In this document: piece by piece, positions 11,782 through 54,335 of the stretch
How positions within the stretch are numbered: the first letter of the stretch is position 1
How the letters are laid out: each line of letters starts with the position of its first letter
Assembly (NCBI RefSeq): GCF_003334785.1
Contig: NZ_QOWV01000012.1
Origin: Escherichia coli
Lineage (GTDB): Bacteria; Pseudomonadota; Gammaproteobacteria; Enterobacterales; Enterobacteriaceae
Strand: one strand, 5' to 3'
Length of the DNA: 64,000 bases
Notes under the pieces: generated by a model
What the model was told of the DNA's origin: nothing
The model's database searches: none
What the model saw: the letters and a program-made list of their open reading frames with translations, nothing else
Program-made: the position numbers and the translations under genes

Positions 11782-12277
11782 GGGGGGATATAAATTTATA
11801 TAATAAAACGTTTTTATGTTTTTAAATTAAGTTATAAAAATTTTCCCGAGACTATTCATCAATAGGTATGGAGTGTACAGGAATATCTTCTTCACTAACC
11901 TCTTTAAACTCATGTCGATAATGGTCAAAAAACGCACAGTGATTACTTGTGTTTTTTGACTGACTTTACAACTCTCATTATTCGCTATTGTGAAGTTTCT
12001 CTAATTGTTTTATATCCTGGAAAGTTAAATGTTAGTTACTGCATACTTTTTTATTTTTTGAGATTTATTTTCATTTGAAATTATAAAGTCAGGTGATAAA
12101 TGAGTTGTGATTAATAGATAGTTGATATCATTTTTATCTAAAATTGATTTATGGTGCCGACCTGAAAAATTAGCTATTGCCGCCTGATTAATTATACGAT
12201 ATTTTTAAAGGTTTTCTTTCAAATTAGAAATATTCTGGGGTTTTGTTTTTGTATCTTTTATCTCTAAGGAGCTTGCT

Positions 12278-15043
12278 TTGGGTCAATCAGAATACATTTC
12301 ATGGGTAAAATGTACTTCCTGGCTAAGTAACTTTGTGAATCTTAGAGGGTTGAGACAACCGGATGGCCGTCCTCTTTATGAATATCATGCAACCAATGAT
12401 GAATATAACCAATTAACGCAGCTACTCCGTGCAGTCGGTCAATCACAATCTAATATATGTAATAAGGACTTTGCTGCCTGTTTTGTTCTTTTTTGCTCTG
12501 AGTGGTACCGCAGGGATTATGAACGGCAATGCGGATGGACGTGGGACCCTATATATAAAAAAATAGGGATTTCATTTACCGCCACAGAGCTTGGTACCAT
12601 CGTACCGAAAGGGATGGACGATTACTGGCTGCGCCCAATTCGATTTTATGAATCTGAACGACGCAATTTTCTCGGAACATTATTCAGTGAAGGTGGTTTA
12701 CCTTTCCGGTTACTCAAAGAATCAGACAGTCGCTTTCTGGCTGTTTTCTCCAGGATCCTTGGACAATATGAGCAAGCAAAGCAGTCAGGTTTTTCTGCCC
12801 TTTCGCTGGCAAGAGCCGTCATAGAAAAATTAGCGCTGCCAACTGTTTTTAGCGAAGATACTTCTGTAGAACTTATCAGTCATATGGCTGATAACCTCAA
12901 TTCCTTAGTACTTACTCACAACCTAATAAATCACAAAGAACCAGTACAACAGCTTGATAAGGTTCACCCTACCTGGCGAAGCGAGTTTCCAATACCGTTA
13001 GATGATGAAACAGGAACGCATTTTTTGAATGGACTGCTATGCGCAGCCTCTGTAGAGGCTAAGCCTCGACTACAAAAAAATAAGAGTACGCGTTGCCAAT
13101 TCTATTGGTCAGAAAAGCATCCAGATGAGCTTAGGGCGATAGTATCTCTCCCTGACGAAGTTTCCTTTCCTGTAACAAGCGAGCCGTCAACTACGCGCTT
13201 TGAACTTGCCATTTGTGAAGATGGTGAGGAAGTCTCTGGCCTTGGGCCAGCTTATGCTTCCCTGGAAAACAGACAGGCAACAGTTCGATTACGTAAAAGC
13301 GAAGTGAGATTTGTCAGGCAAAATCCATCGGCAGGTTTGTCGTTAGTGGCTCGTGCTGGAGGGATGATTGTTGGGAGCATTAAACTTGATGACAGTGAAA
13401 TTGCCATTGGTGAGGTGCCGTTAACCTTCATCGTTGATGCAGATCAATGGCTGTTACAGGGACAGGCCTCCTGTAGTGTGCAAAGCAGCGATGTTCTGAT
13501 TGTGCTCCCTCGGGACAATAGTACTGTTGCTGGTTTTGATGGCCAATCGAGTGCAGTAAACGTATTAGGACTTGTCGCTATGACTCTGGCGGTTGCTCTG
13601 CGTCAGGCGCTAGCGGGCGTTCTGGGTATCTCCGGCGCAGAACTCGGCTATTCTGTACGCCCGGTCAGACTGGAGGATGGGCAATCGGTATTAGCCGTTC
13701 AGCTTTATGATGTGATCAGCGGTGGTGCAGGTTTTGCCTCCAGCGCACCGGTACACATTGAAGCTATTTTGCAGGGAATGGTGAAACAGTTAGGTTGCCG
13801 CCATTGTGATACTGCATGTAGTGAATGCCTGCTTGATTCCCAGACTCGCCACGATCACGATTTGCTGGATCGCAAAGCGGCGCTGGCCTGGCTTGGCGAT
13901 GACTTCACGTATTACATCGGTTTACCGGATGAAGAGACATTCTCGCTGCCGGATGCCCGCTACTGCCCTGGCGCTATTGGCGATACGATTCGCCGGGCGA
14001 TTAACGAAGGCGCTGAAAAGCTCACCCTGTGGATGACCGGCGCGCCCAATGAGTGGGATTTATACGCCCGTCAGTTCCGCGCGGCGGTTCAGAGCTATCG
14101 GCTAAAAGACAACGTCGAGGTCGATCTTGTTATACCTGCGGGAGTGGATGACCCGGATCTGTTGTATGAACTATCGCAATTTACTGCGCTGGGTGTGCGG
14201 CTGTGCCATGTTGAACAGGATCTGCAATTGCCGATCGTTGCCCAGGTTACCTTTGCCGATCGCGTGATGACGCTGGCTTCTCGCAGCCAGCAGGCAACGA
14301 TTCCGGGGCCGGAGTGGCACCTGAATGACGAACTGGTGGTGCGTAGTCTCGGTTATAAAACGGTAGAACTGAACGAGTTTATTCTGCCGGCTAAAGCCGC
14401 CAACGCTGTCGAGCGGGTCAAAGACATTCAGATCCACAAACAGTTGAATGGACCACTTTCGCAGTTTGGACAACGCTTCTGGGACGTGCTGTTTAACGAC
14501 CATGAAGAAGCACAGTCACTGATGAATAACACGCGAATTACCGGCGTTCACTATACCGATCGCTATCTGCAAAACCCGGTTGCGCTGGCGTTGTTGGGAT
14601 CAATTCTGAGACCGCTAAAAACAAAGCTGACCGATGGCGCTGAAGTGGCGCTGGATACGCTGTTTAAAGATAAAGATCGCCCCGGTAACCGGCCTTTCCA
14701 TGACTGGATGAGCATAGCGGATTTTCAGGATTTCGCTGATCAGTGGTTTGCTGCTGCGCTGGGCAGGCCGATAGAACTAACGGTGTTCGACTCGCCGCGC
14801 GATATCCCTCACCATCGTAAACTGACGGTGACTTTTGAGGATGGTCAGGTTTTGAAGATCCGCTTCGATCAGGGGATGGGCTACTGGCGTATCAACTTTG
14901 CATCGCAATGGCATTACTTTGACTTCCGCGATGACGTTTCTTTCCAGTTAGTCAAAATGGCTCAGGCCTGCAATGAAGGAAATGTGGCCAACAGCGAAGA
15001 GAGCTGGGCAACGGATGTGCTGGTGGAGGTGAGCGCCTCCTGA
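12278..15043 (+). CDS. Uncharacterised 921-aa protein in the immigration-control region; candidate single-gene defence / anti-MGE factor, function unknown
   Basis: Uninterrupted 2766-nt ORF; TTG start at 12278 preceded by AAGGAG 8 nt upstream; 0.5-kb AT-rich leader; intrinsic terminator immediately after the stop; CxxCx3CxxC motif at aa 507-517; no Walker A found by eye. It occupies the slot where K-12 has yjiT/yjiV/mcrC/mcrB. Confidence 0.7.
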
Positions 15044-36351: not shown

Positions 36352-37637
36352 TTCGCTGTTTCCTCACTCACAATTCGGTTCACCAGGCAGCCCACGCCTT
36401 CTACTTCCACCACTACTTCATCGCCAGGCACCACGTCAGATAAGCCTTTTGGTGTGCCGGTGGCGATCATGTCGCCCGGATTCAGGGTCATAAATTCGCT
36501 TAAGTAGGCGATCAGGAAGGGCACGCTGAAGATCAGATCGGCGGTGGTGCCTTGCTGGCGTAACTCGCCGTTGACGAAGGTGCGAAGGGTCAGATTATGC
36601 GGGTCCGGGATCGCCTCTTTCGGCACGATGGTTGAAAGCATCGGCGTCAGTCCGTCGCGGCTTTTTACCCGCAGGTTAGGGCGGTAGTAGTTTTCCAGAT
36701 AGTCGCGAATGGCGTAGTCGTTACACACGGTGTAGCCCGCGACATAATCCATGGCATCGGCTTCGCTGACGTTACGCGCCTGTTTGCCAATAACTACCAC
36801 CAGCTCCGCTTCATAGTGCATGTATTCAATATTGTTTGGACGCACGGAGGTCTGGTTATCGCCAGTGAGGGTATTTGGCGCTTTCAGGAACACCAGCGGT
36901 TCTTCCGGTGGCTTAAATTCCAGTTCGCTGGCGTGGTCGGCGTAGTTCAGGCCGAGGGCAAACAGCGTGCCGTGCGGGTGTGGCTGCGTTGGGAAGCTCT
37001 TGCGCGTGGTCACTTCACGTTCGTCCACTACCGGATTTTCCAGCGGCGGGAAACCTTCTGCGAGAACACGAACGCGATCGCCTGGCTGTATTTCCACGCG
37101 CGCCTGTGGCGTGCCGAGCAGAATGGCATCGCCTGGATTCAGTGTGGCAAATTCGCTCAGGGCGCTCAGCAACTGCGCGGCGTTACGTTGTAAATCGGCG
37201 GTATTCCAGTGATCGGCAGGACGCCCGTTGATCTCGGTATAGATGGTCAGATTATCGACATTGCTGAGAGCCACGGTTTCGCCAATGGGGCAGAATCCAT
37301 CACGACATTTTGCTTTGATTGCCGGGCGGTAAAAGCTCTCTTCCGGCAGGCTGACGTCGTTAGCCAGCGCATATCCGGCGATGTACTCTGCCGCATCTTC
37401 TTCACGTACTTTCGTCGCCGTTTTTCCCACAATCAGCGCAACAGTCGCACCGCTCAGTACCTTTTCACCCTGTGGAAAGGGAATCGGTTCACCGCAACCA
37501 ATCACCGTATTGCGCGGTTTAATAAACCAGACCGCAGTTTTAGGCGGGGCTTTGTAGGGGGATTGCTGGAACGCTTCCTGCCATGCATCAAGTTGGCTGC
37601 GATGGTTCAACGCTACGGCGAAGATAGTGCCTTTCAT
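36348..37637 (-). CDS. hpaG: Bifunctional 2-hydroxyhepta-2,4-diene-1,7-dioate isomerase / 5-carboxymethyl-2-oxo-hex-3-ene-1,7-dioate decarboxylase
   Basis: ORF 36348-37643; ATG at 37637 (GAGGAG Shine-Dalgarno upstream) gives 429 aa; duplicated FAH-family domains. Confidence 0.85.
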   Translation of the reverse strand: MKGTIFAVALNHRSQLDAWQEAFQQSPYKAPPKTAVWFIKPRNTVIGCGEPIPFPQGEKVLSGATVALIVGKTATKVREEDAAEYIAGYALANDVSLPEESFYRPAIKAKCRDGFCPIGETVALSNVDNLTIYTEINGRPADHWNTADLQRNAAQLLSALSEFATLNPGDAILLGTPQARVEIQPGDRVRVLAEGFPPLENPVVDEREVTTRKSFPTQPHPHGTLFALGLNYADHASELEFKPPEEPLVFLKAPNTLTGDNQTSVRPNNIEYMHYEAELVVVIGKQARNVSEADAMDYVAGYTVCNDYAIRDYLENYYRPNLRVKSRDGLTPMLSTIVPKEAIPDPHNLTLRTFVNGELRQQGTTADLIFSVPFLIAYLSEFMTLNPGDMIATGTPKGLSDVVPGDEVVVEVEGVGCLVNRIVSEETAK

Positions 37638-37662
37638 TACCACTCCTCGGATTCGATCATCT

Positions 37663-37686
37663 TAATCATTAATATGTTAATGATTA
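37663..37686. promoter_or_regulatory. Perfect 10-bp inverted repeat (TAATCATTAA-tatg-TTAATGATTA), candidate HpaR operator in the hpaG promoter
   Basis: Palindrome seen directly, 26-49 nt upstream of the hpaG start in the hpaG-hpaR divergent region; HpaR is known to repress this promoter through palindromic operators. Confidence 0.4.
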
Positions 37687-37908
37687 CTTTTATTCCCGAT
37701 TGCGTAGTTTGGCAAAAGTAAGTGATGTAAATGTGATCTAATTAACAAACTATTTACATTTAAAGATAATAAAATATTAAATATCATTAAGTTAATAAAA
37801 TATCATCAATTTTGATAAAATCAGGAATTGCAGGGACAGCGCAGTCCCGGTAACGTGACGATTAACTGTTTCTATATTAATAATTTTGAATTTTTCAGGG
37901 GAAAGATA

Positions 37909-51032: not shown

Positions 51033-51667
51033 AAAAATGCGTCATGAGTAGTATCGGTATTGAGAGTTTATTCAGAAAGTTTGCGGGCAACCCTTATAAG
51101 CTCCATACCTATACCAGTCAGGAGTCATTTCAGGATGCCATGTCGCGGATCTCGTTTGCGGCGGTCATTTTTTCTTTTTCTGCCATGAGAAGTGAGCGCA
51201 GAGAGGGATTATCTTGCCTGACTGAACTGGCGATTAAGTTTCCGCGTACCCGGCGTTTAGTTATTGCGGATGATGATATTGAAGCTCGGCTGATTGGTTC
51301 ATTGTCGCCATCACCGCTGGACGGTGTATTAAGTAAAGCGTCAACGCTGGAGATTTTTCATCAGGAACTCTTTTTGTCATTAAATGGTGTACGTCAGGCG
51401 ACCGACCGACTGAACAATCAGTGGTACATTAACCAAAGCCGGACGCTAAGCCCGACGGAGAGAGAAATATTGCGCTTTATGTCGCGTGGCTACTCAATGA
51501 CACAAATTGCCGAGCAGCTTAAACGCAATATCAAAACGATCCGCGCGCATAAATTTAATGTGATGTCGAAACTGGGCGTCAGTTCTGATGCAGGATTGTT
51601 GGAGGCCGCAGATATTCTGTTATGTATGCGGCATTGCGAAGCAAGTAATGTGTTGCATCCCTATTAA
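50990..51667 (+). CDS. bglJ: LuxR-family transcriptional activator BglJ (RcsB partner)
   Basis: 225 aa with C-terminal LuxR HTH ([45 protein letters not shown]); 43-nt overlap with yjjQ. Confidence 0.85.
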
Positions 51668-51704
51668 TCCGCATGATGCCGGGTTTACTTCCCCGGCAGT
51701 GCTT

Positions 51705-52493
51705 TCATTTCAGCGTACAATCGCCACATTGCTGCACATCCGGTAAGCGATAACGCTGGCAGCAAGTGCGGCGCACCAGCAGGCCGTCGCGCAGTACCAC
51801 GGTACGCCAGAGTGGATTATCTTCACCGTTCGTGAGCGTTTTCTCAAAAAAGATGGCATGGCGCAGCGATTCAACCGTCGCCTCGCCGAGCAGTTGCTTC
51901 ATCTCAGTGAGATACCAGTTGATCAAATAACCGGTATTACTCCAGATAAGTTTGCCGTTGATCTCTCCGGTCGCTTCTAGTGCCTGCACAACCGGAACCA
52001 GCGCCTGGCTGATTAACGTTTCCATTCGCTGCTGCGGCGAATGTGGTGTTGCGTTTTTATCGTCACACACATCGACCCAGAAACAGGCGGCACGGCCGGT
52101 TTCGTGAAACTCAGCATGGAAATGTTCCGGCGACACATCTAATGCTTTTTCCTGCGTCAGTAGCGCCAGCATTAATGGTGGCACCATCAGGCCGATATAC
52201 CATTGTGCCCATAGTGAGATCAGCGGTTTGTTCTCGCGGATCATCGTTGGTTGGTTGCGATAGATATGATCGGAATAGACCGCGAGTAGAGAACTTAGCG
52301 CATTCGGTGATGACCATTGCGCCAGCGTCATGGCGTTAAGCGGAGCGGGTTCATCCAGGCGGATAAACTCCAGCAAATGTTCACGATGTTCGGCGATCGT
52401 CGCACGTACGGCTTGTGCAAGCCCAGCATCCTGTGGCTGGAGATGCGTTCGCCAGATGATATCTTCATAGAGCGGTGCGGAACGATAGGCCAT
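51705..52493 (-). CDS. fhuF: Ferric-siderophore reductase FhuF (2Fe-2S)
   Basis: 262 aa with C-terminal C-C-x10-C-x2-C cluster motif (CCQRYRLPDVQQCGDC). Confidence 0.9.
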   Translation of the reverse strand: MAYRSAPLYEDIIWRTHLQPQDAGLAQAVRATIAEHREHLLEFIRLDEPAPLNAMTLAQWSSPNALSSLLAVYSDHIYRNQPTMIRENKPLISLWAQWYIGLMVPPLMLALLTQEKALDVSPEHFHAEFHETGRAACFWVDVCDDKNATPHSPQQRMETLISQALVPVVQALEATGEINGKLIWSNTGYLINWYLTEMKQLLGEATVESLRHAIFFEKTLTNGEDNPLWRTVVLRDGLLVRRTCCQRYRLPDVQQCGDCTLK

Positions 52494-52494
52494 A

Positions 52495-52633
52495 ATCGTG
52501 ATAGTAATCTAAATGATAATGATTGCTAATCCTAGCGATAGGTTTACCCGATAGCAAGGGATTTCTCTGGCTTGCAAATGATAAAAATTATCATATGATA
52601 TTGGTTATCATTATCAATGAAAGAGATGAAACC
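52495..52633. promoter_or_regulatory. fhuF-yjjZ divergent promoter region with multiple Fur boxes
   Basis: aaatgataatgattgctaatc and gcaaatgataaaaattatcat / gttatcattatcaat match the Fur consensus GATAATGATAATCATTATC. Confidence 0.55.
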
Positions 52634-52870
52634 ATGTTGCAACGTACGCTGGGCAGTGGCTGGGGAGTGTTGCTGCCGGGATTGCTGATTGCAGGGCTGA
52701 TGTATGCGGATTTATCGCCGGATCAGTGGCGGATTGTCATTCTGATGGGATTAGTATTGACGCCGGTGATGCTGTATCACAAACAGTTACGGCATTACGT
52801 TTTGCTACCATCGTGCCTGGCGCTTATTGCTGCCATCATGCTGATGATAATGAATTTGAATCAGGGATGA
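52634..52870 (+). CDS. yjjZ: Small inner-membrane protein YjjZ (78 aa), Fur-regulated
   Basis: ORF 52523-52870; ATG at 52634 gives 78 aa starting MLQRTLGSGWGVLLPGLLIAGLMYADLSPDQWRIV. Confidence 0.7.
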   Translation: MLQRTLGSGWGVLLPGLLIAGLMYADLSPDQWRIVILMGLVLTPVMLYHKQLRHYVLLPSCLALIAAIMLMIMNLNQG

Positions 52871-52908
52871 AAAATCAAGGAAGAAACAAGAAAGGAAGTA
52901 AAGATAAT

Positions 52909-52995
52909 TGGTGCGAGGGGGGGGACTTGAACCCCCACGTCCGTAAGGACACTAACACCTGAAGCTAGCGCGTCTACCAATTCCGCCACCTTCGC
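52909..52995 (-). tRNA. leuV: tRNA-Leu (anticodon CAG), single copy
   Basis: Minus strand reads GCGAAGGTGGCGGAATTGGTAGACGCGCTAGCTTCAGGTGTTAGTGTCCTTACGGACGTGGGGGTTCAAGTCCCCCCCCTCGCACCA, 87 nt with encoded CCA; cloverleaf and long variable arm typical of tRNA-Leu. Confidence 0.9.
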
Positions 52996-53029
52996 ATACC
53001 ATCAATTCTTAAAAAGAATTGCTACCACG

Positions 53030-53070
53030 GAGGCGCATTCTAGTGGTTTTCAGCTTTTCGTCAATAGTTA
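53030..53070 (-). promoter_or_regulatory. Sigma-70 promoter for the tRNA-Leu gene
   Basis: Minus strand: TTGACG -35, 16-17 bp spacer, TAGAAT -10, followed by a GC-rich discriminator (gcgcctcc) typical of stringently controlled stable-RNA promoters. Confidence 0.45.
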
Positions 53071-53114
53071 ATTATCGCCGGAGGTGTAATTGCTGAAAAA
53101 ATGTCCATCAGGAA

Positions 53115-53292
<178 letters not shown>

Positions 53293-53303
53293 CGGCGAGA
53301 TAA

Positions 53304-54335
53304 TTAACCTTTCTTCGCCTGGCGGGTCATAATGGCGCGATACACCTTGAAACGCCCGGTTTGCGCAATCACTTCATGGAAGCCAAATGTCTCATCCAGC
53401 ACGTCCGGGTAAGGCAGGAAGGCGTTCGCTACAATTCGCAGCTCGCCGCCGCTATTAAGATGACGCACCGCGCCGCGAATCAGCGTTTGCGCCGCATCCA
53501 GGCTGGTTTGCATCCCATCGTGGAACGGCGGGTTGGAGATGATCATATCAAAACGACCTTTCACCTCGGAAAAGACGTTGCTGGCAAAGACTTCACCTTC
53601 AACACCGTTGGCCGCAAGTGTTGCGCGGCTGGCTTCTACCGCTGGCGCAGAGACATCGCACAAGGTGAGACGAATTTTCGGCGAATGGCGCGCAAAGGCA
53701 ACTGAAAGCACACCCGCGCCACAGCCGACATCCAGCACTTTACCTTTCGTGTGCGGGGTTAACGTCGAGAGCAGCAACTGGCTACCGACATCCAGACCGT
53801 CGCGGCTAAACACGCCAGGCAGCGTTTTGACCGTCAGGCCATCGACGCTGTATTCGCCCCAGAATTTATCGGCATCAAATACCGGCTGTTTTTCCAGACG
53901 ACCAAAATAGAGGCCACAGCGACGAGCGCTGTCGACTTTATTCAACGGCGCATAATCTGCCAGCATCTGCTCGGCGCTGCGCACGCCGCTGCGGTTCTCG
54001 CCAACGACAAAAATATCTGTCCCCACTGGCAGCAGAGAAAGTAAATTCATCAACTGGAACTGGGCTTCCGGTTTGTTCTTCGGCCAGTAGTAAATCAGCG
54101 TATCGCAATCTGCGACGTCATCCACCGTGGCGACCAGACTGAAACGGGCGTTATCCCCCATCTGGCGGCTTAATACCTGCCAGTGGTGGAATTGCTGGGT
54201 ATGAGCACGGCTGGCCGCGGTATCTAAACGCGCGGGCAGGTCATCCTGTAAGTCTCCGGCAAACAGAATACGGCTTTGTTCGAAATCATCACTGTGACGC
54301 AGCAAGACTTCACTTGCCGGGGTAAATGCAGACAT
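53304..54335 (-). CDS. rsmC: 16S rRNA m2G1207 methyltransferase RsmC
   Basis: 343 aa, [38 protein letters not shown]; SAM-binding motif [12 protein letters not shown]. Confidence 0.9.

Follow-up and report, generated by a model that had tools for sequence, protein, structure and literature searches.

The fhuF-yjjZ locus

The DNA analysed here (the window, 64,000 nucleotides in all) is E. coli chromosome, and the segment 51600-53000 is matched in 5426 of 5426 complete RefSeq E. coli genomes; strain Z1323CEC0010 is 100% identical to the window across it. Two genes diverge from a short spacer, their names being taken from the RefSeq annotation of near-identical E. coli genomes:

51705-52493, minus strand: fhuF coding sequence (siderophore-iron reductase FhuF, 262 aa), from the open reading frame and the RefSeq annotation of matching genomes
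52634-52870, plus strand: yjjZ coding sequence (DUF1435 small membrane protein, 78 aa), on the same basis
52494-52633: fhuF-yjjZ spacer, 140 bp, 32% G+C, between the divergent starts

A first-pass annotation had placed fhuF leftward and yjjZ rightward of a 140-bp spacer, and the open reading frames and RefSeq annotation bear this out. Its gene names were right, as were its spacer coordinates (52495-52633, against 52494-52633 here). Of the 5426 complete E. coli genomes, 5425 carry the spacer at an identity of at least 90%. The window and K-12 differ at 4 of its 140 positions, with no indel, and the stronger cluster of Fur sites described below is unchanged.

Some other features of the neighbourhood can be dealt with briefly. 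Two open reading frames that overlap the spacer, 52544-52642 and 52465-52557 (both minus strand), are short and were not taken as genes, nor was 52523-52870 (TTG start), which is an in-frame upstream extension of yjjZ. When 51500-53500 was searched against Rfam with a permissive threshold, the spacer gave no match, which leaves a small RNA there unsupported; the only matches were to tRNA-Leu and the REP-type naRNA4 downstream. The tRNA-Leu(CAG) gene lies 3' of yjjZ at 52909-52995, and is present in one copy in the window, two in Z1323CEC0010 and three in K-12, so the copy number of this tandem array is variable. The naRNA4 matches lie between tRNA-Leu and rsmC, at 53143-53225 and 53254-53320, and the first of them exceeds the gathering score (70.3 bits). 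In the hsd/symE region (13014-13578), about 560 bp of the window replace a block of about 4.1 kb with IS3, IS30 and IS600 in Z1323CEC0010; outside that block the two sequences are more than 99.9% identical.

Fur sites in the spacer

Searched with the 19-bp Fur consensus GATAATGATAATCATTATC at up to three mismatches, the 64-kb window yields one match, at 52597-52615 (two mismatches on the minus strand, three on the plus strand), where about 0.02 would be expected by chance. The 7-1-7 motif TGATAATnATTATCA, at up to two mismatches, is matched three times in the whole window, each time within 52579-52616. Exact GATAAT/ATTATC hexamers lie in the spacer at 52515, 52587 and 52610.

Sites were then scored with a symmetric 19-bp weight matrix, refined on the best site of each of 16 Fur-regulated intergenic regions of K-12 (fepA-fes, fepD-entS, fepB-entC, fur, tonB, cirA, sodA, fecA, fecI, fhuA, ryhB, gpmA, exbB, sufA, bfd and fiu). 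The fhuF region was excluded from this training set, but the matrix was seeded with the classical consensus and so is not fully independent of the motif used in the first-pass annotation. Scored by leave-one-out, the training promoters span 11.3-21.9 bits. The two highest scores of the 64 kb both belong to the spacer, at 52597-52615 (23.9 bits) and 52574-52592 (15.1 bits), and the spacer sites as a whole form two groups:

52574-52621: strong (yjjZ-proximal) Fur cluster, 19-mers starting at 52574 (15.1 bits), 52580 (11.9), 52591 (9.7), 52597 (23.9) and 52603 (9.7)
52579-52593, 52596-52610 and 52602-52616: 7-1-7 units of the strong cluster, with one, two and two mismatches
52509-52533: weak (fhuF-proximal) Fur cluster, made of two 19-mers that overlap, with starts at 52509 (11.1 bits) and 52515 (12.6)
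52514-52528: 7-1-7 unit of the weak cluster, with three mismatches

The three strong 7-1-7 units overlap and are centred at 52586, 52603 and 52609. Four spacer sites (23.9, 15.1, 12.6 and 11.9 bits) score above the lowest leave-one-out value of the training promoters, and sites of at least 9 bits number seven, versus at most four in any of the 16 training regions. The first-pass annotation had claimed at least two overlapping Fur matches and had named a weight-matrix scan with scores below threshold as what would speak against them. That outcome did not occur, and the sites do overlap, in a 6-bp register.

One natural variant of the array was found. Among the 5425 genomes that carry the spacer, eight have it at 90-95% identity, and the one inspected, E. 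coli strain 200112, has a 12-bp tandem duplication, TTATCATTATCA, within the strongest Fur box (locus L015, 1326-1337). It is equivalent to an insertion after window position 52604 and adds two hexamer units to the array.

Because the motif and the spacer are both AT-rich, chance was assessed by shuffling the spacer itself 5000 times with its dinucleotides preserved. Of these shuffles, 0.02% reached a maximum of at least 23.9 bits, 0.04% had four or more sites of at least 11.3 bits, and seven sites of at least 9 bits occurred in 0 of 5000. Elsewhere in the window, matrix matches of 11-15 bits cluster at 37593-37894, in the divergent hpaG-hpaR spacer, and at 12051-12190, an AT-rich stretch (26% G+C) running from a pseudogene to yjiS. 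Both groups are much weaker and sparser than that of fhuF-yjjZ, and are probably an effect of composition. Could the fhuF-yjjZ matches likewise be AT-rich promoter DNA that resembles an AT-rich consensus, with no Fur site present? The low G+C content of the spacer would fit such a reading, as would the 12-15 bits reached in those other AT-rich spacers. However, shuffles that keep the dinucleotides of the spacer almost never attain the observed scores, the Fur boxes are the most conserved columns in a comparison across genera (see below), and direct footprints and gel shifts have been published (PMC2189734). The footprints by themselves already refute coincidence, which we regard as extremely improbable.

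The published binding data come from Chen et al. (Nucleic Acids Res 35:6762, 2007; PMC2189734), who footprinted the fhuF promoter with DNase I at Fur concentrations of 50-400 nM, showed a gel shift for the strong cluster, and found two separate protected regions. The high-affinity region, fhuF1 (K-12 4603763-4603815), is protected at 50 nM Fur; the low-affinity region is fhuF2 (K-12 4603680-4603733). The K-12 translation starts given in a figure of that paper, 4603686 for fhuF and 4603827 for yjjZ, served to check the constant offset (4551193) by which K-12 coordinates were converted to those of the window. After conversion, fhuF1 occupies 52570-52622 and encloses the strong cluster, while fhuF2 occupies 52487-52540, over the mapped fhuF start, and encloses the weak one. 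Chen et al. scored three strong sites (16.1, 20.8 and 22.3 bits) and two weaker ones (14.6 and 9.3 bits), which correspond to the three 7-1-7 units and the two weak 19-mers found here; the unit centred at 52586 is the site that they scored highest, at 4603779.

Regulation of both genes by Fur is also documented. In nine E. coli strains, fhuF and yjjZ both belong to the core Fur regulon defined by ChIP-exo and expression, and yjjZ is upregulated by fur deletion (PMC10164565). Moreover, Fur controls yjjZ directly in CFT073 and MG1655 (PMC7157518), and in Salmonella the gene is Fur-dependent, with an iron-repressed promoter (PMC8432900, PMC8970401). The fhuF gene is repressed by Fur in iron-replete medium and derepressed by fur deletion and by dipyridyl (PMC7515728). 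Two further Fur-regulon papers (PMC4676285, PMC10219339) mention neither gene in their main text. At the same time, the fhuF promoter is described as binding Fur-Fe2+ weakly, a property on which the Fur titration assay, FURTA, is said to be based (PMC3050691), and fhuF::lacZ is the reporter of that assay (PMC2189734, PMC1874648). The claim of the first-pass annotation that iron represses both genes strongly can therefore be kept as to repression (PMC2189734, PMC10164565, PMC7515728), but the word "strong" suits yjjZ better than fhuF.

Promoters beneath the two clusters

The two Fur clusters lie about 40 bp apart in the Escherichia spacer, and each of them coincides with a promoter, known or predicted:

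52523/52524 (K-12 4603716/4603717), minus strand: fhuF transcription starts (PMC2189734, Figure 5 legend; coordinates converted here)
52529-52557, minus strand: putative fhuF sigma-70 promoter, with -35 TTGCTA at 52557-52552, a 17-bp spacer and -10 TAGGAT at 52534-52529
52572-52599, plus strand: predicted yjjZ sigma-70 promoter, with TTGCAA at 52572-52577, a 16-bp spacer and TATGAT at 52594-52599

The mapped fhuF start falls within the weak cluster, as for a repressor that overlaps the core promoter. The -35 and -10 hexamers proposed for fhuF were read from the sequence relative to the published start, and this -10 would be only 4-5 nt from the mapped starts, which is unusually close. The window has C at 52532 where K-12 has A, and the hexamer is accordingly TAGGAT here versus TATGAT there; its third and fourth positions also vary among other Escherichia and other genera. 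With these assignments the weak cluster covers both the putative -10 and the mapped start of fhuF, in agreement with the weak Fur affinity on which FURTA is based.

A second regulator has been linked to the same promoter. Zheng et al. (2001) reportedly described an OxyR binding site for fhuF. Using the OxyR consensus ATAGnTnnnAnCTAT-N7-ATAGnTnnnAnCTAT, the best match in the fhuF promoter is 13/20, at 52516-52552, which is not distinctive, as scores of at least 13 occur at ten positions in the 64 kb. Oxidised OxyR is said to repress fhuF (PMC8115020).

For yjjZ, the promoter prediction coincides with that of a holoenzyme-binding study (PMC3946193), in which identical hexamers were predicted, and would put the start of transcription near 52606. 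A mapped yjjZ start was looked for in the literature and not found, and the overlap of promoter and Fur sites is for that reason a predicted one. On this prediction the strong cluster would extend over the yjjZ promoter, reaching from the -35/-10 spacer to about +10: one strong unit would lie in the -35/-10 spacer, one over the -10 and the expected start, and one just downstream.

The distance from the strong cluster to the fhuF start downstream of it is 46-98 bp, and the cluster may add to fhuF repression in Escherichia. In the first-pass annotation the whole spacer was one Fur-binding array, from which the two divergent promoters are repressed together. This is a common description of short bidirectional promoters of iron genes, and the short distance between the clusters, with the strong one at -46 to -98 of fhuF, fits such a description. 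Chen et al. also noted that protection by Fur extends over longer stretches when more of the protein is present (PMC2189734), and the FURTA positive control clones "FhuF1 + 2" together (PMC1874648). A single shared operator, however, would be one contiguous protected region that is inherited as a unit. What has been published is two separate footprints of unequal affinity (PMC2189734). In addition, it is hard to square the weak affinity of fhuF for Fur (PMC3050691) with direct control by a cluster of 22-24 bits. Inheritance, which bears on the second part of the definition, can be judged from related bacteria.

The same sites in other enterobacteria and in known systems

A scan for FhuF with one genome per species returned 12 loci. 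In Escherichia (E. coli, E. albertii, E. whittamii and two more lineages) the spacer is 140 bp and the sites are alike. A distance of 1417-1444 bp separates the start codons of fhuF and yjjZ in four Citrobacter loci and in one locus each of Salmonella enterica subsp. arizonae and Klebsiella grimontii. A gene for a membrane GGDEF protein of 348-354 aa (GGEEF motif) lies between yjjZ and fhuF in these Citrobacter, Salmonella and Klebsiella loci, on the fhuF strand. A second Klebsiella-labelled contig (L024) gave no yjjZ match and does not enter the comparison. Two further features are needed to describe this arrangement and its counterpart in the window:

About 316-1392 of each of the loci L020-L023, L025 and L027, co-directional with fhuF: diguanylate-cyclase gene
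52558-52571 of the window: junction zone in alignments with the other genera, where fhuF-side homology fades by about 52567 and yjjZ-side homology begins at about 52570

The product of the interposed gene contains a GGDEF domain (Pfam PF00990, E = 5.8e-47). Its protein cluster is widespread in Salmonella enterica and carries only generic labels, "GGDEF domain-containing protein" or "probable diguanylate cyclase DgcQ"; the gene may be S. Typhimurium STM4551. All sampled Escherichia are without a GGDEF gene at this place.

In Citrobacter, Salmonella and Klebsiella the two Fur clusters are about 1.3 kb apart, with the GGDEF gene between them: the block CTAAATGATAATGATTGCTAATCCT remains next to fhuF, and the box GATATTGGTTATCATTATC remains next to yjjZ. 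The latter box is identical or one base off in Escherichia, Citrobacter, Salmonella and Klebsiella. Mean column identity among nine taxa is 0.95 in the weak cluster and 0.96 at 52596-52616, against 0.70-0.81 in neighbouring segments of the spacer, and the Fur blocks are the most conserved columns of the alignment. The unit at 52579-52593 (centre 52586) behaves differently, with one mismatch to the 7-1-7 motif in Escherichia and three or four in Citrobacter, Salmonella and Klebsiella. Being closer to the consensus in Escherichia, this unit makes part of the strength of the strong cluster Escherichia-specific.

The fhuF-side homology ends just past the fhuF -35, and the yjjZ-side homology starts just before the yjjZ -35. 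Given that the one reaches to about 52567 and the other begins at about 52570, some 1.3 kb is missing in Escherichia: the cyclase gene together with about 186 bp upstream and about 46 bp downstream of it. Klebsiella is taken here as the outgroup, following enterobacterial phylogeny. Since the gene is present in Klebsiella as well as in Citrobacter and Salmonella, its loss in the Escherichia lineage is the simpler reading, and we infer a deletion rather than an insertion. From the alignments with these three other genera, the Escherichia spacer is most likely a fusion of two promoter regions made by that deletion. The same comparisons suggest that the strong cluster belongs to yjjZ, and that it lies near fhuF in Escherichia only through the loss of the intervening diguanylate-cyclase gene.

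The inheritance of the sites thus tells against a shared operator, in that clusters 1.3 kb apart in three other genera, each conserved beside its own gene, have not been inherited as a unit; with the two footprints, this leaves the single array a distinctly unlikely reading. The first-pass annotation was correct that the spacer holds a dense set of Fur boxes, as the matrix, the shuffles and the footprints all indicate. It holds them in two clusters of unequal strength and separate evolutionary linkage, not in a single cluster that the two genes share. We think it highly probable that the spacer consists of two Fur operators, characterised in K-12, each serving its own promoter, most likely brought together by the deletion.

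How might the two operators work? With two operators of unequal strength, iron-loaded Fur dimers would fill the strong cluster at low concentration, and RNA polymerase would then be blocked at yjjZ. The weak cluster would fill at higher Fur-Fe occupancy, blocking the fhuF promoter, so that fhuF would be shut off only at that higher occupancy and released early as iron falls. Occlusion of RNA polymerase is the mechanism we infer in both cases, and for yjjZ the exact promoter is the predicted one. The loss of about 1.3 kb with the GGDEF gene would have left two Fur-regulated promoter regions, each independent of the other, no more than 40 bp apart in Escherichia.

A different role for the strong cluster would follow if it contained a second, upstream fhuF promoter, part of fhuF transcription then being under its direct control. 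The candidate is as follows:

52590-52617, minus strand: candidate leftward sigma-70 promoter, with TTGATA at 52617-52612, a 16-bp spacer and TATGAT at 52595-52590

It is the best minus-strand candidate of the promoter scan (10/12), and the holoenzyme-binding study predicted a fhuF promoter, TTGATA-19-GATAAT, at the same place from binding of RNA polymerase holoenzyme (PMC3946193). The homologous DNA in the other genera faces the GGDEF gene, and the candidate could be the former promoter of that lost gene. On the other hand, fhuF starts have been reported solely at 52523/52524 (PMC2189734), TTGATA is not conserved in C. koseri, S. arizonae or K. grimontii, and such matches are to be expected, as Fur boxes resemble -10 and -35 hexamers by composition. 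A second promoter here is accordingly improbable. A broader proposal, to which we give slightly more weight while still considering it doubtful, is that loss of the GGDEF gene rewired fhuF regulation in Escherichia, beyond bringing the operators closer. The unit centred at 52586 could nucleate the spreading of Fur to the weak operator, or the strong operator could house a second Fur-controlled fhuF promoter. If the proposal is true, the iron threshold of fhuF in Escherichia differs from that of fhuF in Salmonella, Citrobacter and Klebsiella.

On the preferred reading, with two operators and two promoters, an old observation would be explained: the fhuF reporter is unusually easy to derepress despite the very strong Fur cluster next to it. 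The discovery value is otherwise small: the Fur titration assay in its standard form uses the fhuF promoter as reporter, and footprints of these Fur sites were published in 2007. The sites are an ordinary example of their kind. That the Escherichia spacer would be of composite origin is a minor point, which has apparently gone undescribed.

The arrangement of the sites can be compared with general models of Fur binding. In the model of Escolar and de Lorenzo, Fur reportedly binds arrays of GATAAT hexamers, and in that of Baichoo and Helmann it is said to bind overlapping 7-1-7 units. The fhuF-yjjZ spacer shares the 6-bp offsets, the GATAAT hexamers and the 7-1-7 units of these models, with no difference in kind. 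The closest relative is of course the K-12 locus of Chen et al., which is the same locus with the same cluster structure (fhuF1 and fhuF2, three strong and two weak sites at 3- or 6-bp offsets). Of the four spacer differences, the one at 52532 (C instead of A in the window) falls in the putative fhuF -10, and no functional difference was seen. Chen et al. took both clusters as sites of the fhuF promoter, whereas the comparative data presented here assign the strong cluster primarily to yjjZ.

The promoters of the enterobactin cluster (fepA-fes, fepB-entC and fepD-entS) likewise serve divergent iron-regulated genes with Fur boxes in a common spacer. They score 14.9-21.4 bits with the matrix, of whose training set they are part, and their spacers hold two to four sites of at least 9 bits, compared to seven in fhuF-yjjZ. 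Unlike the enterobactin spacers, fhuF-yjjZ has separate operators of unequal strength that are unlinked in other genera.
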